Virus record (IMG/VR): IMGVR_UViG_3300045988_151198
Strand: one strand, 5' to 3'
Origin: a virus
DNA: 64,000 nt
This document shows positions 206 to 35,315 of this stretch, in pieces; positions within the stretch are counted from its first letter, which is position 1; every line of letters begins with the position of its first letter. Position numbers and translations under genes: made by a program. The notes beneath the pieces were generated by a model. The model did not search any database, was not told the DNA's origin, and saw only the letters and a program-made list of their open reading frames with translations.

Positions 206-928
206 TTAATGCAATTTAAATAAAACGTGTTGCTTTTCCATACAAAGAGTACACTCATCTCCACAGTGTACCGGGGCGTAGCCCTCGCGTCCATATGGGC
301 AGATAGGATAGCCGAATATTTGACTTTTTTCCTGAATATAGGCTTCATCCCCGAAGTTGATAGATCCATCCGGCAACACAGATTCAACCATGTTCACATT
401 GGGAAGCGCCACAAATTCCGAAAAGTCAAAAATATTTGACACTTTCGTATAAAAGTAGAAACGCTTTTCCGGGAATTTATCAGCTATCCGTTTCCACATA
501 TTGACATACGCTTGAGAAACAAAATCCCCAGAGGAATGAATACGCACGAATGGACGTGAGGATTTTTTCAATGAATCCGATGTTATACGTTCAAGACACG
601 CAAGATCATTGAAGGCAAGATATGTGTGAAAGAGTCTTTTGTTATAAGTTAGGGTATATTGCCGTTGCGCTTTCCGAGCATAACAGGATCCCGCACAATC
701 GGCGCAATTCAAACACGTATCAACAGCAAGCAAGTCAAATATAAGGATATTTTTCGCAAGTTTGGAATTGCCCTTAGCAAACGGATCTCTTATAAAAACA
801 CCTAAGTCCTGAATATAGTTTTTCCTATCAGGTGTTTTTTCATGATAAGAACGCATTCCCTTGCATTCTTTGATCATTCGCAAGGTGTTAACAGGAGAAA
901 ACCGTCTGCCGAAAAATCCCTTTTCCAT
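206..928 (-). CDS. Cys-rich putative Fe-S protein (C-x2-C-x2-C-x3-C-YA plus a C-terminal Cys cluster); possibly the phage Gp37/Gp68 (DUF5131)-like family
   Basis: 240-aa ORF; motif CLNCADCAGSCYA; C-terminal CPYG...HCGDECTLC; conserved RBS AAGAGGTTTTATC immediately upstream of the ATG. Confidence 0.4.
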   Translation of the reverse strand: MEKGFFGRRFSPVNTLRMIKECKGMRSYHEKTPDRKNYIQDLGVFIRDPFAKGNSKLAKNILIFDLLAVDTCLNCADCAGSCYARKAQRQYTLTYNKRLFHTYLAFNDLACLERITSDSLKKSSRPFVRIHSSGDFVSQAYVNMWKRIADKFPEKRFYFYTKVSNIFDFSEFVALPNVNMVESVLPDGSINFGDEAYIQEKSQIFGYPICPYGREGYAPVHCGDECTLCMEKQHVLFKLH

Positions 929-2770: not shown

Positions 2771-3127
2771 TTAGATCCCGTGATACTTGCAAGCGTTCAA
2801 GTACCAATTTAGAAAGTACTTTTCTTGTACCGTAGGAGGCGTGATCATGTCAAGAAATTTTTTCGGGCAAGCGTAATCAAAAGGCCCCATTTCCAGCGGG
2901 ATAAACCTTGTTGTAACTTCCCGCAAGCTACTGTAAAAGCTTTTCTTTGCTGTAGCCTTTACCACGATGCCGCGAACTTCCCCTTTTTCACAATATGCTA
3001 CGAAAATAGTCGATAATGCGCAGTTGGATACATAAAGAACTTTATCCCCGCTCATTTGGAACAGGATATCCGCTTTTACGGCCTTGGCTCTGGTATCCGC
3101 TACGATGTTCGATACTGTCCAGCACAT
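2771..3127 (-). CDS. hypothetical protein; start placed at the internal ATG 3127, which carries the conserved RBS
   Basis: The track ORF is 2771..3154; the ATG at 3127 is preceded by AAAGAGGTTTTATC. Confidence 0.4.
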   Translation of the reverse strand: MCWTVSNIVADTRAKAVKADILFQMSGDKVLYVSNCALSTIFVAYCEKGEVRGIVVKATAKKSFYSSLREVTTRFIPLEMGPFDYACPKKFLDMITPPTVQEKYFLNWYLNACKYHGI

Positions 3128-3616: not shown

Positions 3617-4007
3617 ACAGGAGCTTTTTACCCGCCTTAAGTTGTCCTACGGAAACTATGACCTTAATCGCGGCGGCGGCCTGACTTACGGCACGAGCTT
3701 CAACGTCAAGCCAAGATTCGTGTAAGTTAGGTTCAAGTTCCCCGCCGCGTTTCTTGTGAAGCTCGGACGGCGTGCACAACCTTTCAGCAATTGCGCAGTC
3801 ATACACAAGCCCACACCCGCCGTAAGCCCATTCCTTCCACGACCCCGCGCCGTTAAGAAGAACCCCACGGCAATTTTCAGGGTTAAGATCCTGAAAATCG
3901 GGTAAATCTTCGATAAGGTCCATAGCGTACTGCCGAACTCCCCTACGCCATGCGGAACGTTCGGCAGGAAGGGATTCAATAACATTTTTGATATCGATAA
4001 TTTTCAT
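3597..4007 (-). CDS. hypothetical protein (136 aa)
   Basis: ORF with RBS AAAGAGGTTATCACC-ATG. Confidence 0.45.
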   Translation of the reverse strand: MKIIDIKNVIESLPAERSAWRRGVRQYAMDLIEDLPDFQDLNPENCRGVLLNGAGSWKEWAYGGCGLVYDCAIAERLCTPSELHKKRGGELEPNLHESWLDVEARAVSQAAAAIKVIVSVGQLKAGKKLLLTVSPF

Positions 4008-5378: not shown

Positions 5379-6536
5379 CTACAGGATGAAAGAGACTCTT
5401 TCAAGTCGGCACTGGCTCTTGCCTTTGTAGTCGTCATGAGCCTTGACTTTCGCTTTTTTGATAGTATACGTGCCGCCTCTCTCGACATCGGGAAAAGCGG
5501 AAGTTTTCCACACAAAAGGAATGCCCGCGCTTGACTTCATGATGAAGATATGCTGTGCACCGTACATACCTTCAAACGTGAATATCTTTTCAATGGTGAC
5601 TTCCTCATTAGCAATAACCGTGCCAATGGCGGGAAATTCCACGGTAGATTTTTCTTCCGTCTTTTCCACAACAACCTTTTCCTCTGTCTTTTCGGACTCG
5701 AAAGCCTTGCGGATATCAGCAAGAGCGCCGCGAATCCCCGCCGCGATAAAGCCGAACACACGCTTTTCGCAGCGCTCGGAACTCATAACGCGAAAAACGT
5801 TTTCCTGATATTCTCCCCTGCGATCGGAATTTTTAATAAATTCGATAGCTTTCATAGCTTTTTCGGTATGCTCCGCTGTAACGGTAAAATCGTAATCACG
5901 AGGGAAAGAGCGATAATGTTCGTCAACAAAATCCATGATCTTTGAAGCTGTGCTTCCCGGCGTGTTAGACTTCACAAAACCGAAATCGGAGATCAGCTTA
6001 ACAGCTATGGCGCAGATCTCCACGGTAGCATAATGCGGAGAGCTCGCATAATGTCCATCGTCATCAGAATCCCCAAGGATTCCGGAATTTTCCGCGAAAA
6101 ATTCGAGCGCGCCCGCTTCCTTTCCCAGAAAATCGATAATGCAGGACGTTCCCACCTGAATAATCTTTCCGGCGGCGTCGGAAAGCAGGATGGTCTTAGA
6201 ACGCTTTCTTTTCGTCCCGCAGTGATCACAGATCTTACGGTCGGCAAAAGGAGTCAGATCAACATCTTCCGTAAAAAGAGGGTTACGGAAGATAAGGCCG
6301 CCGCTTGCATGGTCGACCACGGCAGCAAAAGTATAGCCTGAAATCGCGGGATATACGCCATCAATATGGAACTCCACAAAATCCTCATATTCGTAAGTCC
6401 CTTCCGTCCTTACGGAAAATTCACGTTCAACCATGATAGAGAAAGCAGGAGCAAGCCCACGCTTTTCAGCGCGGCGGTTCAGACTTTCGACCTTATCAAC
6501 AATCTTAGCGAACGTAGACTTGTGGCGGATAGGCAT
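5379..6536 (-). CDS. hypothetical protein (about 385 aa); start placed at ATG 6536, which carries the conserved RBS
   Basis: Track ORF is 5379..6569; the ATG at 6536 (MPIRHK...) is preceded by AAGAGGTTATACGTC; no recognisable motifs. Confidence 0.5.
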   Translation of the reverse strand: MPIRHKSTFAKIVDKVESLNRRAEKRGLAPAFSIMVEREFSVRTEGTYEYEDFVEFHIDGVYPAISGYTFAAVVDHASGGLIFRNPLFTEDVDLTPFADRKICDHCGTKRKRSKTILLSDAAGKIIQVGTSCIIDFLGKEAGALEFFAENSGILGDSDDDGHYASSPHYATVEICAIAVKLISDFGFVKSNTPGSTASKIMDFVDEHYRSFPRDYDFTVTAEHTEKAMKAIEFIKNSDRRGEYQENVFRVMSSERCEKRVFGFIAAGIRGALADIRKAFESEKTEEKVVVEKTEEKSTVEFPAIGTVIANEEVTIEKIFTFEGMYGAQHIFIMKSSAGIPFVWKTSAFPDVERGGTYTIKKAKVKAHDDYKGKSQCRLERVSFIL

Positions 6537-7625: not shown

Positions 7626-7890
7626 TACGCGGGGATTTTCAACGATTGTTCAAGAAATAACTATCAATACAATCAACTACTTACAACTTGGCATAAGTCT
7701 TGCATAGCTTGAGAATGGTTGGGGATTCTCCAATCATTTCAAGTATATGGGAGGGGGTAGTGTTAAAGTGTACCGTATTCCGGTATATAGTACCGTCGTT
7801 GACTCAAAAAAACATTTTTTTCGATTTCTGAGCTTTTATCCGGTTGTAATTATTCATGTAAATTTTTTAAACGAAATTTTAATAAAACTA

Positions 7891-7919
7891 TTGACAAAAA
7901 ATCGTTTATGGATTAAGAT
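7891..7919 (+). promoter_or_regulatory. sigma70-like promoter TTGACA-N17-TAAGAT upstream of terS
   Basis: TTGACA at 7891..7896 and TAAGAT at 7914..7919; RBS AAGGAG at 7942..7947. Confidence 0.5.
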
Positions 7920-7954
7920 TTTTACTAAATTTAATATAAAAAAGGAGAAAAACA

Positions 7955-8425
7955 TTGCGACGCCAAACAAAATCCATCGAAGCGCATAAGCAAGATGGTA
8001 CATACAATTCTACGAAGCATGGAGTGGACGTTCCATTGGCGGAAGGACCGCTGAGGAAAATCAATTGGGACAAGATGTCCTCGGAAGACATTTATACTAC
8101 GATTGCTGATGTTATCGCGCAGAAGGGACTTGACCATGCTGAATACTCTCTGGCTTTGGAACTCTTAGTTTATGCGGTGAATAGGATGCTTAAACTCCGC
8201 AGGGATCTGAAATCCCAAGGCGGAGAGACATATATTACCCCGACAGGTATTCGGAAAAACAATCCTACAGCGAAACTTGTTATGGAAGCAGAGAAGCAAG
8301 TTGATACGCTCCTGCAAAGGTTTGGGCTTACTCCGGATTCTCGTAGTCGAGTAGCTAGGAAGAAGGGAGAACTTAATCTAGGGAGTGAAGATTCTTTCGG
8401 ATCTCCGGAAGGTTTCTTCAATTAA
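7955..8425 (+). CDS. terS: phage terminase small subunit, P27 family (TTG start)
   Basis: Family hallmark motif ...QRFGLTPDSRSRV... plus the upstream pattern (G..K.NP); RBS AAGGAG precedes the TTG. Confidence 0.7.
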   Translation: MRRQTKSIEAHKQDGTYNSTKHGVDVPLAEGPLRKINWDKMSSEDIYTTIADVIAQKGLDHAEYSLALELLVYAVNRMLKLRRDLKSQGGETYITPTGIRKNNPTAKLVMEAEKQVDTLLQRFGLTPDSRSRVARKKGELNLGSEDSFGSPEGFFN

Positions 8426-8457
8426 ACCAATAATTTAAAAATATTTAAAAAAAGTAG

Positions 8458-8485
8458 TTGACAAGTATAAAAATCTAAGTATAAT
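8458..8485 (+). promoter_or_regulatory. near-consensus promoter TTGACA-N16-TATAAT driving the first tRNA cluster
   Basis: TTGACA at 8458..8463 and TATAAT at 8480..8485. Confidence 0.65.
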
Positions 8486-8499
8486 CTATTTCAGTAAAA

Positions 8500-8569
8500 G
8501 GTGTTGTTGGCTACATGGGAAAAGCTACGCTTTCGAGCGTTACTGTAGGTTCGACTCCTATGGGCACCA
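8500..8569 (+). tRNA. tRNA-like element with canonical T-arm (GGTTCGACTCC) and 3' ACCA, but a 6-nt anticodon loop in every fold tried and an imperfect acceptor stem
   Basis: T-stem GTAGG/CCTAT; the acceptor GGTGTTG/GGGCACC pairs 6 of 7 using two G-U wobbles; the anticodon arm ACGC-TTTCGA-GCGT gives a 6-nt loop. Confidence 0.35.
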
Positions 8570-8658
8570 TCAAAAAGATAGACTCGTATTTCAATTGATG
8601 TAAGGTAAGTCTGTAACCAAGAAAATGCTGGCTTAAATCATATCGAGTCTATCATTAT

Positions 8659-8735
8659 GCGACCGTAACTCAATTGGCAAGAGTAGCCGACTTTTAATTG
8701 GCAAGTTATGGGTTCAAGCCCCATCGGTCGCACCA
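8659..8735 (+). tRNA. tRNA-Lys (anticodon TTT)
   Basis: Hand-folded cloverleaf: acceptor GCGACCG/CGGTCGC, D-stem ACTC/GAGT, anticodon stem GCCGA/TTGGC with loop CTTTTAA, T-arm ATGGG-TTCAAGC-CCCAT, discriminator A, encoded CCA. Confidence 0.7.
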
Positions 8736-8761
8736 TAAATCTGTAAAAAGGAGATTCATAG

Positions 8762-9028
8762 ATGGACACGACCACTGATTTCTTTGAAAGAATGTTTTCT
8801 TGTGAAGGTTGGGATCAGCTTGACACTTTCGACTTTGTGTTTTATGATTGCACTTTGAACAGGGATATTGGAGATTTTAAGGAAGGAGACAAGATTGACG
8901 CTATTACTGTCCTTTTTAGTGTCAGCAAGATCGAATTTGCGACGTTCATTGAGAACAAGGATGGTATGGATGAAGAAAAAATCATTTATTCCGCAACGCT
9001 TGTGCCCTTTATGGTCGAACGACCTTAA
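8762..9028 (+). CDS. hypothetical protein (88 aa) embedded between the two tRNA clusters
   Basis: ORF with RBS AAAGGAGATTCATAG-ATG. Confidence 0.45.
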   Translation: MDTTTDFFERMFSCEGWDQLDTFDFVFYDCTLNRDIGDFKEGDKIDAITVLFSVSKIEFATFIENKDGMDEEKIIYSATLVPFMVERP

Positions 9029-9046
9029 AAACTATTAAAAAAGTTC

Positions 9047-9075
9047 TTGACATTCTGATTTAAGTTTAGTATAAG
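9047..9075 (+). promoter_or_regulatory. promoter TTGACA-N17-TATAAG driving the second tRNA cluster
   Basis: TTGACA at 9047..9052 and TATAAG at 9070..9075. Confidence 0.6.
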
Positions 9076-9113
9076 GTTTCCATCAATTCATTCATACGTT
9101 TGCTCCTCGAATC

Positions 9114-9147
9114 GGGAGACGCAATTTCCTCCTTTATTGCGTCTCCC
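9114..9147 (+). other. perfect 12-bp stem-loop (GGGAGACGCAAT / ATTGCGTCTCCC) in the leader of the second tRNA cluster; no immediate U-run, so read as an RNA structural or processing element rather than a terminator
   Basis: Exact inverted repeat with a 10-nt loop, just downstream of the 9047 promoter. Confidence 0.45.
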
Positions 9148-9262
9148 ACAACAAAAATTTTTAACAGAAGAATCGGCTTATAATCGGGAAGTTATATAGA
9201 ATTTTATAGTACCGTGGGGCACACGGGAACTGAGAGTAATCTCTACGCTTGTCGACATCAGG

Positions 9263-9339
9263 TAATGATGGTTGAAGCAAGAATCCCATACATTTATACA
9301 TGGGGAGTGCCAAAGGTTCGAGTCCTATCGACTCTACCA
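9263..9339 (+). tRNA. tRNA-like element (T-arm GGTTCGAGTCC, 3' ACCA); the 5' acceptor strand could not be paired by hand
   Basis: T-loop TTCGAGT, discriminator A and CCA at 9337..9339; no complementary 5' acceptor was found within 70 to 110 nt upstream. Confidence 0.3.
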
Positions 9340-9343
9340 TCAT

Positions 9344-9422
9344 GCTCTCGTGGTGCAACTGGCAGACACATCGGTTTTAAGCACCGTACAAGTGATGGGT
9401 TCGACTCCCTCCGAGAGTACCA
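9344..9422 (+). tRNA. tRNA with anticodon TAA (would read Leu UUA/UUG), but it lacks the long variable arm expected of a Leu tRNA, and the T-stem has mismatches
   Basis: Acceptor GCTCTCG/CGAGAGT (first pair G-U), anticodon stem CGGT/ACCG with loop TTTAAGC, T-loop TTCGACT, CCA at 9420..9422. Confidence 0.5.
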
Positions 9423-9432
9423 AAAAAAATAT

Positions 9433-9508
9433 TGTGGGATAGTTCAGTTTGGTAGAACACTTGACGTTAATCAAGGTGTTGGCGGTTCAATCCCGTCTCC
9501 CACAGCCA
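9433..9508 (+). tRNA. tRNA with good acceptor, D and T arms, but the anticodon loop folds as 6 nt (CGTTAA) or 8 nt (ACGTTAAT); anticodon identity unresolved (GTT or TTA/TAA)
   Basis: Acceptor TGTGGGA/TCCCACA, D-stem GTTC/GAAC, T-arm GGCGG-TTCAATC-CCGTC, anticodon stem CTTGA/TCAAG, CCA at 9506..9508. Confidence 0.5.
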
Positions 9509-9523
9509 GAAGAATTAAAAACG

Positions 9524-9613
9524 GGACAGGTGCCAGAGTCAGGCTTATTGGGGCGGTCTTGAAAACCGTTGGCGCAGGAGCGTCCGTGGGTTCGAATCCT
9601 ACCTTGTCCGCCA
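9524..9613 (+). tRNA. tRNA-Ser (anticodon TGA), type II with a long variable arm
   Basis: Acceptor GGACAGG/CTTGTCC, anticodon stem GCGGT/ACCGT with loop CTTGAAA, variable arm GGCGC-AGGA-GCGTC, T-arm GTGGG-TTCGAAT-CCTAC, CCA at 9611..9613. Confidence 0.7.
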
Positions 9614-10164
9614 AATTTATCGATATTTATACGGGATACGAAGTAGAGCAGACAAGTGCGTTGAAAAACTGACGGATATGTCGAAAGACATAGACTAATA
9701 GTAGCTGCGACGCAATAGACCTTCTATGACGATAGATAGAACTAGCATATCAAACTCGTGGTTACGATGCTTCGTTACTTGCAAGACCCTATTAAATATC
9801 GATAATATTTCGATGGATTGAGTTGATCTACGTATCTCCCTGTATGGATCGAGAACGCAAGATCCTCTTCATCGATAAAAGCCAAACGTGATCTTGAAAG
9901 GAACGATTCGACCTCCTTGCGTAGCCTATCGAGGTCCGTTTGGCCCCACAAATCTCCGGGTGTAGTTTAAGAGCTTAGTCAGGATCTAGATGAGAAAACC
10001 GCATACTAGTAGGCACTCATTGAAAGAAGTGATATTGATTCTGACGGGCCACAGTTAAAACCTCTGCGCGAAGTAAACAGCTTCGAAGAAAATGCGAATG
10101 CTTGATCAGCATTTTAGGTGCAATTCCCGCCACTCGGACACAATTAAAAAAAAGGAATGGTGTA

Positions 10165-32681: not shown

Positions 32682-33422
32682 ATGGACAAATACCATAAAA
32701 GACCTTTTGATTCACGATGGGAGAGTAGGGAAGATATTACTAAAAATAATCGGGTTAAATTAACGTATAAACCTAGAAGTGGAGAAAAGTTTGGGAGATT
32801 AACTATTATTGAATCCGATTGGGGTCAGTATCGTGCATACGCAAAAGTTCGATGTGAATGTGGGTCTGAATTTAAAGTTCCAGTAGCGCAAATTCGGATG
32901 GGAGAGCATCTTTCGTGCCGTAGATGCGCACAAAAAAATAGAAAATATAAAAATAAAATTCTTAAAAAACTAAATGAACTTATCCCTGATTCAAAATTAC
33001 GATCACTTTGGACACAGCGTTACCGCAATATTATGGAAAAATGCTATAACACTAGTTGTAAACAATATCATCAATGTGGAGGCAGAGGAATCGAAATATA
33101 CGAAGAATGGATGGAGGATAGACTTAAATTTTTAGAATATATTAAAACATTACAAAACTGGGAAAACACCGCATATGATTTTTGTAGAATAAATGTTAAT
33201 GGTAATTATGAACCGGGAAATGTTAGATTAGTCACCAGAAAAGAAAATATCAATAATAGGAGAGTATCTATAAAAATTAAATATGATGGTTGTAAATACA
33301 CTATACGAGAATTTAAAGAAAAATTTACTCCAGAATGGACTAGGTCATCTATTTTATATCATACAAAAAAAGGTCACACACCTGAATATATGATCTATAG
33401 ATATAATATCAAACATAAATAG
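32682..33422 (+). CDS. HNH endonuclease (homing-endonuclease-like, HNH_3 type with an N-terminal zinc ribbon)
   Basis: N-terminal GRLTIIE...VRCECGSEFKV...LSCRRCA; C-terminal INVNGNYEPGNVRLVTRKENINN matches the HNH_3 motif. Confidence 0.6.
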   Translation: MDKYHKRPFDSRWESREDITKNNRVKLTYKPRSGEKFGRLTIIESDWGQYRAYAKVRCECGSEFKVPVAQIRMGEHLSCRRCAQKNRKYKNKILKKLNELIPDSKLRSLWTQRYRNIMEKCYNTSCKQYHQCGGRGIEIYEEWMEDRLKFLEYIKTLQNWENTAYDFCRINVNGNYEPGNVRLVTRKENINNRRVSIKIKYDGCKYTIREFKEKFTPEWTRSSILYHTKKGHTPEYMIYRYNIKHK

Positions 33423-33510
33423 CCTAAAGAATATGTTGACATTCGCTTCCGATTGATGAATACTCCATTTGTCGGAAGCAAACATCTTTAGAAAGAAGGA
33501 GTGTAAGAGA

Positions 33511-34693
33511 ATGATTGAGGTAAAAGGATCAGTAAGTACAGCTAAGGTTTTCACAGACTATGTGGATCCGACCGCGTTATCTCAGATTATTGAATTATGT
33601 AATCAGGAGTTCACCGAAGGAAGTAAAATCCGTATTATGCCTGATGTACATGCTGGTGCTGGATGCGTTATTGGAACGACGATGACCATTGAAAATAAGA
33701 AAATCGTTCCTAATCTTGTCGGTGTTGATATTGGCTGTGGGTTGACATCGGCAAGATATGGCGGTTACGAATTGGGCTTCCTGCAAGAATATGAAAAAGA
33801 AGAAGGTGTGTGGGTAAATGATTTTTTAAAAGAATTTGATAGGTTGATTCGGGCAAATGTTCCTATGGGTACGAATGTTTGCGAAAAGCTAATGTACCAT
33901 CCATTTAGGACACGAATAAAAGAATTGATTTGCGCTAAAAATGTAAATATTGAAAGGGGGTATCACAGTATTGGAACCCTTGGTGGTGGAAATCATTTTA
34001 TTGAAGTTGGATGTGATATTTTCTCTGAAAAGAAAGGGCACATAGGAGAATTGCGTAGAGATTTTTATATCACGGTTCATTCCGGATCTCGTGGTATCGG
34101 AAAAGAAGTAGCTACTTATTATCAAAAAATTGCGGAAGAACAATGCAAAAATGTGCCAAAGCACTTAGCATATTTATCTGGGAACGCATTTGAAGACTAT
34201 ATTCACGATATGCAGATTATGCAGGAATACGCTTCTATTAATCGTGATTGTATAATCGAAAAAAATAGCTATGAATTGCGCTTTAATCGCTCCCGCTCCG
34301 GATAGCTACGAAGAAACAATTCATAATTATGTCGAGATTGGAGAAAAGATTATTCTTCGCAAAGGTGCAATCTCCGCGAAAAAAGATGAAAAAGTCATGA
34401 TTCCATTAAACATGCGGGATGGTATCATAATCGGAAAAGGTAAGGGCCTTGAGGATTGGAATGAATCCGCGCCTCATGGTGCCGGGCGCGTACTTAGTCG
34501 AGGACAAGCTAAACGGCAATTGTCCGTAGATATTTTTAAGGATCAAATGGAAGGAATCTATTCAACCTGCATAAACGAATCGACGTTGGATGAAAGCCCT
34601 TCCGCATACAAGAATTCTGATGAGATTTGTAATAATCTCGATTCCGTAGAAATTGTCGGAAGGACTAAGCCTATCTATAATATTAAAGCATAA
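33511..34693 (+). pseudogene. rtcB: RtcB-family RNA ligase, disrupted by a frameshift: N-terminal part 33511..34305, C-terminal part continues in the +1 frame from about 34256 to 34693
   Basis: N-terminal motifs MPDVHAGAGCVIG, VGVDIGCGL, GGGNHFIE, ASINRDCI; the C-terminal part carries HNYVE...RKGA...SAPHGAGR; the two frames overlap at 34256..34305. Confidence 0.65.
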
Positions 34694-34705: not shown

Positions 34706-35315
34706 AATGAATATGAAAGTTGAATTTATCGAGGAAGCTGGATGGAATTCTGCATTGCTTGGTCTTGGCCTGTCTTTTGGCCTTACATCAGATAAGACGT
34801 TGGATGACTTAGAGAGCGAGGAAGTGGCTCCCGGTCAGGAATGGCCTCTCCATGAACGTCTTTATCGCCGAGCATGGAATCTTGCCCGGCTTGATAATGG
34901 TCATAATAAATATCTGGAAAGTATCGTAGTTTGGATCGATATTACTGCACCCCGCTATTTCTGGTCGCAATTCGATACCTATCGTGTGGGAACGTCCAAA
35001 CAGTCCGAGTCTACGATGCACACGATTATGAAGCGGCATCTCACGAAGGACGATTTCTCCGACAAAGTTCGTCAGGAAATCATTGACATCCTGAATAAAA
35101 TGATTGACGAAAAGGACTTTGAAGGTGTAAAAGAAAATCTCCCAGAAGGATTCTTGCAGCGGAGAATCGTATGCACCAATTATAAGGTTCTTCGGAATAT
35201 GTACCATCAGCGCAAGAATCACAAATTGAAAGAATGGAGGTTTTTCTGCGACCAGATTCTCATGTATCTTGATGATAGGTTTATCCCTGCCGTAAAGGGA
35301 GGGGTGGATGTCTAG
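34706..35315 (+). CDS. ThyX-fold protein (flavin-dependent thymidylate synthase-like) with a divergent active-site motif
   Basis: GHNKYLESIVVWIDITAPRYFWSQFDTYRVGTSKQSES aligns to the ThyX block [37 protein letters not shown], but RHR is replaced by TYR; a later block (RRIVCTNYKVLRNMYHQRKNHKLKEW) also follows the ThyX pattern. Confidence 0.45.

Follow-up and report, generated by a model that had tools for sequence, protein, structure and literature searches.

The rtcB locus of this gut phage raises the question of whether an uncultured virus uses an RtcB RNA ligase together with its own tRNAs to replace and repair tRNAs cut by host anticodon nucleases, and whether such a system can operate where the ligase gene is broken. 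A preliminary description of the whole 64,000-nucleotide stretch analysed here (the window) had proposed this two-pronged strategy. Phage RtcB genes are common, and their function has so far been proposed only. Protection against host tRNA cleavage by RtcB and phage tRNAs was put forward in 2011 for Cluster K1 mycobacteriophages (PMC3203893) and again in 2021 for jumbo phages (PMC7824862); RtcB counter-defence is an established hypothesis and is not new here. Counter-defence by phage tRNAs alone is now well documented (PMC10264068, PMC11464382, PMC11555353), and our search of the literature for experiments in which a phage RtcB overcomes a defence system returned speculation only.

The rtcB gene and its predicted product

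The window covers part of the genome (~87 kb) of an uncultured siphovirus-like phage from the gut. Structural proteins encoded in the window include a portal, a major head protein, and a tape measure of 1366 aa, and the window also has polA and the genes for a thyX-like protein, a dUTPase, and an anaerobic NrdD. Long ORFs cover ~90% of the window. Megablast of 20 kb against GenBank phages gave no match, and the capsid and polymerase proteins are at most 35% identical to those of cultured or GenBank phages, the ones matched being phages of Proteobacteria. Around rtcB the genes run in the order polA, HNH, rtcB, thyX-like, a 216-aa ORF, dut, and nrdD, which places rtcB in the nucleotide-metabolism and replication module. 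The features of the locus are as follows.

32682..33422, plus strand: HNH homing-endonuclease gene between polA and rtcB (phrog_374 at 3e-36)
33436..33464, plus strand: promoter-like TTGACA-17-AATACT (consensus match only)
33496..33501, plus strand: AAGGAG ribosome-binding site, 9 nt 5' of the rtcB ATG (consensus match only)
33511..34305, plus strand: 5' rtcB ORF, 264 aa from ATG; codons 1-251 in frame, then 13 out-of-frame codons and TAG
34259..34265, plus strand: A7 homopolymer, site of the +1 insertion (same A7 in contigs L017 and L018)
34266..34693, plus strand: 3' part of rtcB in the +1 frame, residues 252-393 of the joined protein
34271..34693, plus strand: 3' rtcB ORF as listed, 140 aa, with its ATG at 34271

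The two rtcB ORFs overlap just past the A7 run, and their frames are offset by +1. Removal of one A from the run yields a single RtcB of 393 aa, a frame that is absent in uninterrupted form from the window, where the extra A leaves products of 264 and 140 aa. Both fragments are already public as DAF08331.1 and DAF08332.1, each labelled 'MAG TPA: tRNA-splicing ligase RtcB [Caudoviricetes sp.]'; a fitting annotation for the gene in the window would be frameshifted pseudogene. Promoter-like matches in the rtcB region numbered 18, against 13.2 (sd 3.7) expected from shuffled sequence, and are not in excess.

Identification of the gene as an RtcB-family RNA ligase, which the preliminary description had made from the sequence alone, is secure on several lines of protein comparison. 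The HMM search that it had suggested, run on the joined 393-aa translation, matched Pfam RtcB (PF01139) with E=6.4e-62 and 210.6 bits against a cut-off of 27, and the joined protein also matches PDB RtcB chains from Pyrococcus, Thermus, and human. In an alignment of 16 sequences, with homologues 53-97% identical, the joined protein keeps all invariant columns, among them D45, H47, D73, C76, N161, H162, and H190, encoded by the 5' part, and H271, N272, H322, and R326, encoded by the 3' part. The catalytic Cys and His residues, whose absence the preliminary description had named as a refutation, are therefore present. By HMMER alignment C76, H162, H190, and H322 correspond to C98, H203, H234, and H404 of P. 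horikoshii RtcB, which we take to be metal ligands and, in the case of H322, the GMP-accepting histidine. The frame junction falls after residue 251, so that H271 and H322 are missing from the first product and all of the N-terminal ligands from the second.

Like E. coli RtcB of the rtcBA operon and the PrfH-coupled RtcB2, the joined protein belongs to the same fold family and has its catalytic residues at corresponding spacing. Unlike them, it falls far under both NCBIfam equivalog cut-offs (127 bits against 407 for the E. coli RtcB equivalog NF007153, and 102 bits against 271.8 for RtcB2, TIGR03073), and there is no rtcA, rtcR, or prfH nearby. The best cellular homologues are RtcB-family proteins, ~50% identical, in gut Clostridia-type MAGs. 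Among phages, the RtcBs of Cluster K1 Anaya (gp88), Listeria phage A511 (gp52), Bacillus SPO1-like phages, and Clostridioides phiCD211 belong to the same Pfam family, come from tailed phages that also encode tRNAs, and have been given the same speculative role in tRNA protection (PMC3203893; PMC7824862). The conserved N-terminal region of the gene in the window has 66-73% DNA similarity to the genes of these phages. In contrast to them, the gene described here lies in an uncultured gut phage with the distant capsid and polymerase noted above, is frameshifted, and is repeatedly inactivated in sister strains.

Several other features vary between strains in the surroundings of rtcB. The HNH gene in the gap between polA and rtcB is also found in L003, a contig of a sister clade; the relatives L001, L002, and L016 lack it at this position. 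The protein cluster of the HNH gene is rich in fragments. L001 carries at 7848..8603, after the thyX-like gene, an ORF starting MYGYVYCTTNL that is absent from the window and that by eye looks GIY-YIG-like. The polA product is 708 aa in the window, 975 aa in L036, and 1082 aa in L003 (1847..5095), and the longer forms in L003 and L036 suggest an intein or other insertion in some strains. Finally, the thyX-like protein matches Pfam Thy1 weakly (27.5 bits), and the N-terminal third of its gene (34808..34870 in the window) is rich in indels and highly divergent between strains that are otherwise 95% identical, while staying in frame.

The frame break

The preliminary description had left it undecided whether the broken frame reflects a decaying system or a faulty assembly. 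A Logan contig (SRR3993056) matches the window at 100% identity along 6.8 kb, and an ENA scaffold of 86,672 bp (ERZ28595483, sample SAMN05414982) does so along 4.6 kb; both have the A7 run. The Logan and ENA assemblies come from different pipelines, and all copies of the A7 allele apparently come from one sample. An exact-pattern scan of IMG/VR for the allele gave no match, and scanning metagenomes yielded only a relative whose lesions differ. Intact relatives have AAAAAG at this site; a G>A change and one extra A set the window apart from them. L001 and L002, at 94-96% nucleotide identity to the window, read AAAAAG within one continuous 393-aa ORF, and L016 has AAAAAG too.

Over ~13 kb aligned to relatives, frame-breaking coding indels occur in rtcB only; the other indels are intergenic or form frame-neutral clusters in the divergent thyX-like patch. 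The +1 A is the sole lesion in rtcB of the window, and the neighboring genes are intact. Compared with intact L001 and L002, the corrected gene has a dN/dS of 0.08 over its whole length, 0.05 on the upstream side of the junction, and 0.15-0.18 on the downstream side. The break is most likely a real mutation, since independent assemblies agree on A7 and the ~13 kb show no other coding frameshift, and a recent one, because it is the sole lesion in a gene with so low a dN/dS. These values indicate that rtcB was under purifying selection until very recently and does not appear to be a long-dead pseudogene.

Some of the same observations would be expected if the extra base were a sequencing or assembly error in a homopolymer, the real phage then having an unbroken, working rtcB. 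Only one extra base, in an A run, makes up the lesion, the remainder of the gene looks fully conserved at a dN/dS of 0.08, and an allele traced to apparently one sample could carry a systematic error shared by assemblers. We nonetheless consider such an error very unlikely: two different pipelines returned an identical A7, the aligned 13 kb contain no further coding frameshift, coding density in the window is high and its long ORFs are intact, and the lesions of sister strains go beyond homopolymer error, with a 25-bp direct-repeat deletion, TnpB insertions, and a stop, several of them in multiple samples. The suggestion that the system may be decaying is thus the one that held, with the frameshift present in independent assemblies and at least six other inactivations in sister strains.

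We propose the following course for the genuine mutation. The G>A change would have lengthened the A5 run in the region of codon 250, and the insertion of one A at codon 250 would then have broken the frame. The break would separate D73, C76, H162, and H190 from H271 and the predicted GMP-accepting H322. Because the N-terminal metal-binding residues are parted in this way from H271 and H322, the split gene is predicted to give no active single-chain ligase in the genome of the window.

Inactivated alleles in sister strains

Intact rtcB alleles of 393 aa or 373 aa are common among the relatives; rtcB is intact in L001 and L002 and also in the sister-clade contigs L003-L007, where it is 373 aa. 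The inactivated alleles are listed below, with the positions of lesions in alleles A to G given relative to the intact rtcB of L001.

Allele A (window, L017, L018): +1 A at codon 250; apparently 1 sample
Allele B (L016, L027-L030): +1 G at codon 149 and loss of 25 bp at codon 216 between two AAGCATTT direct repeats; present in at least 4 sample accessions
Allele C (L019-L026): 1.3-kb element with a 391-aa IS605-type TnpB, standing in place of the first 380 nt and of the intergenic region; present in at least 8 sample or run accessions
Allele D (L033, L034): -1 A at codon 293; 2 runs
Allele E (L035-L037): +1 A at codon 289 that, following a G>A change, makes the run A8; present in 3 sample accessions
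Allele F (L038): +1 A at codon 290 and an in-frame stop; 1
Allele G (L015, sister clade, 61% aa identity): TnpB insertion removing the first 10 codons and a frameshift near codon 146; 1 contig

Allele C removes the stretch from D45 to C76 from RtcB. A broken allele is present in roughly a fifth to a quarter of contigs, a share that refers to the cluster members listed (21 members are outside the listing). Wherever they lie inside the contig, polA, the thyX-like gene, the 216-aa ORF, dut, and nrdD are full length in every locus with a broken rtcB. In 90%-identity clusters, which we compared as a less biased control, polA, thyX-like, dUTPase, and NrdD proteins were each full length in 15/15 of the members listed, and 5/15 of the listed rtcB members were fragments, with a separate cluster holding 6 C-terminal fragments. 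The HNH gene, a selfish element, alone shows a rate of fragmentation similar to that of rtcB.

Judging from these alleles, rtcB has been lost independently in at least six other ways in sister strains. Because it is inactivated repeatedly while neighboring genes stay intact, the gene is evidently a dispensable accessory gene, apparently kept by selection in many strains and lost repeatedly in others. Our overall reading, to which we assign a probability of about 70%, is that the locus holds a 393-codon phage RtcB ligase gene that was recently inactivated by a genuine +1 A and that is a dispensable accessory gene across this group of gut phages. The recurrence of rtcB inactivation in a natural gut phage population is a mildly new element, and recurrent loss is consistent with selection that fluctuates, or is relaxed, on a gene of use under some conditions only.

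Two observations concern the mobile element itself. In two of the phage lineages the 5' end of rtcB holds an IS605-type TnpB (OrfB) element, at 1698..2999 in L019 and 4777..5955 in L015, with unequal deletion of rtcB. In L020 (1..3000), the end of the tape measure and two small ORFs are joined directly to a TnpB remnant and a truncated rtcB, the result either of a rearranged genome or of faulty assembly at the mobile element. The TnpB proteins of sister strains are 74-76% identical in amino acids to copies in gut Desulfovibrionaceae (Desulfovibrio, Mailhella), a similarity that gives a weak hint that gut Desulfovibrionaceae may be the hosts; the distant capsid and polymerase matches to phages of Proteobacteria are a weak hint to the host as well.

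The alleles also bear on whether the break might be bypassed, by programmed +1 slippage of tRNA-Lys on GAA-AAA-AAU or by transcriptional slippage on A7, perhaps as a phase-variable switch. On such an account tRNA-Lys can re-pair from AAA to the overlapping +1 AAA, after which the +1 frame continues IAMNC..., as in relatives, and 4/7 inactivating alleles are changes of +/-1 in A runs, two of which followed a G>A change that first lengthened the run. The slippery run is not conserved, however, and with intact relatives reading AAAAAG the A7 does not appear to be an evolved recoding site; at the rtcB site we found no conserved slippery sequence or frame overlap, the relatives having one continuous ORF. 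A slip of -1 runs into TAG immediately, other alleles carry irreversible lesions, and efficient transcriptional slippage takes longer runs than an A7. We therefore regard bypass as highly improbable, although slippage on the A7 run could produce slight amounts of full-length RtcB.

That the knock-outs (seven alleles, several in multiple human gut samples) were adaptive and not neutral decay seems to us distinctly unlikely. Were they adaptive, RtcB might be costly unless the host has an RNA-cleaving defence, or RtcB might trigger abortive infection, with loss as the escape; the slips in A runs might then be a reversible on/off switch, and the alleles would document, in a natural population, how selection on a phage gene for RNA-repair counter-defence has fluctuated. 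The lineage in any case provides natural rtcB+ and rtcB- strains, otherwise ~95% identical, in many public gut metagenomes, and rtcB status could be correlated with host defence repertoire without culturing, as a natural experiment.

The tRNA genes and the role of intact RtcB

The preliminary description had placed rtcB next to tRNA genes, a tRNA-Lys(UUU) gene and five other tRNA or tRNA-like genes. The following were detected in the window.

8500..8569: tRNA-like sequence under the Rfam threshold (24.4 bits, cut-off 29)
8659..8735, plus strand: tRNA-Lys(UUU) with an encoded CCA end (ARAGORN; Rfam 66 bits)
9344..9422, plus strand: tRNA-Leu(UAA) (ARAGORN and Rfam)
9433..9508, plus strand: Asn-like tRNA with a 6-nt anticodon loop (ARAGORN and Rfam)
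9524..9613, plus strand: tRNA-Ser(UGA) (ARAGORN and Rfam)

ARAGORN thus returned tRNA-Lys(UUU) at the same coordinates as those first reported, and the five companions came down to three others and one sub-threshold sequence. The latter, at 8500..8569, is called by ARAGORN at a relaxed threshold only and has a 6-nt anticodon loop too. Adjacency to rtcB did not hold up: the tRNA cluster (8659..9613) comes after the small-terminase gene and ends 23.9 kb before rtcB, the individual distances being 23.9-24.8 kb, with a module of primase, helicase, exonuclease, and polymerase in between. No tRNA was found within 6 kb of rtcB in the contigs of the phage's own clade and the sister clade that we scanned (L001-L003, L005-L007, L015). 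The data support neither physical nor operon linkage of rtcB to the tRNA genes. A search of 8301..9800 by ARAGORN, in tmRNA mode and with introns permitted, turned up neither a split tRNA nor one with an intron, which would call for a splicing ligase.

The anticodon loop of tRNA-Lys(UUU) is canonical (CUUUUAA). The Asn-like tRNA has the loop CGUUAA, in which U33 is missing, and ARAGORN gives it no anticodon; L031 carries at 3740..3816 a normal tRNA-Asn(GUU) with the loop CUGUUAA. The 6-nt-loop variant appears to be real, because it recurs in a more distant relative (L032, 11357..11432) and in four other assemblies or samples (L119-L122), and its role may be that of an evasion variant or a decoy, or the gene may be dead. 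We also considered whether it is tied to the AAA-AAU frameshift site and rejected this, as the contig on which L032 and L006 both lie carries this tRNA variant alongside an unbroken rtcB.

Phage tRNAs that replace or evade cleaved host tRNAs include T5 tRNA-Lys against PARIS, T5 tRNA-Tyr against retron Ec78, and anticodon-loop variants of mycobacteriophages (PMC11464382, PMC11555353, PMC10264068). The window resembles these cases in having tRNA-Lys(UUU), of the tRNA class hit by PrrC and PARIS, and, like the mycobacteriophage variants, it has an altered anticodon loop in its Asn-like tRNA. It differs from the evasion variants in the canonical loop of its tRNA-Lys, for which codon supply is equally possible. 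The nearest parallel for repair is phage T4, in which Pnkp and Rnl1 repair tRNA-Lys cleaved by PrrC (summarized in PMC10264068). The proposed logic is the same, namely the re-joining of tRNA halves that anticodon nucleases leave with 2',3'-cyclic phosphate and 5'-OH ends, but the chemistry differs: RtcB ligates directly after activating the 3'-P with GTP, whereas T4 heals and seals with a kinase-phosphatase and an ATP-dependent ligase. Also unlike T4, the window has no Pnkp or Rnl homologue that we could find, and its ligase is predicted to be inactive.

The two-pronged strategy is accordingly hard to maintain for this genome. With rtcB frameshifted and unlinked to the tRNAs, the window adds no other RNA-repair gene: no Pnkp, Rnl, RtcA, archease, or prfH was found among the 28 window ORFs scanned against Pfam, nor was any anticodon-nuclease context found. 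A system that replaces and repairs tRNAs is probably not operating here, because the ligase is not made as a single active polypeptide, and the practical message of the window itself is modest, in that the proposed system is off.

What the intact alleles do is a separate matter. RtcB joins 2',3'-cyclic-phosphate or 3'-phosphate ends to 5'-OH ends, and such ends are those left by metal-independent ribonucleases. By its family, the intact enzyme would most likely use GTP and Mn2+ to seal RNA ends of this kind, and its most probable use would be to re-join tRNAs or other translation RNAs cut by ribonucleases of the host or a competitor. For strains with an intact allele, the joint action of phage RtcB and phage tRNAs against host tRNA cleavage is plausible.

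It may instead be that the two are unrelated even where RtcB is intact, the tRNAs serving for codon supply or as stand-alone replacements and RtcB acting on rRNA or mRNA nicked by toxins or on DNA 3'-phosphate/5'-OH ends. RtcB is able to join DNA 3'-P to 5'-OH ends and to repair 16S rRNA, and the layout of the genome is what this would predict, with rtcB 24 kb from the tRNAs, between polA and the thyX-like, dut, and nrdD genes, and with no tRNA close to rtcB in the relatives scanned. The window moreover keeps its tRNA cluster though rtcB is dead, and in the phage AAA makes up 58% of Lys codons and AAU 73% of Asn codons. The codon-supply argument is weak, however, because UUA and UCA make up only 11-12% of Leu and Ser codons, and codon usage does not discriminate codon supply from the replacement of cleaved tRNAs. 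The protein also scores far below both the E. coli-type and the PrfH-coupled cut-offs, with no prfH nearby, and tRNA halves are the best-documented RtcB substrates. We consider separate roles possible, though on the whole rather unlikely.

An rtcB gene closer to tRNA genes was seen elsewhere. The IMG/VR contigs L008-L014 encode a distant RtcB, 46% identical (for example at 3057..4151 in L008), and in L008 the gene lies ~2 kb from a tmRNA (6148..6520) and near a tRNA-His/Arg/Gly cluster (668..925). These contigs are probably integrated elements or bacterial fragments and not relatives of the phage in the window.
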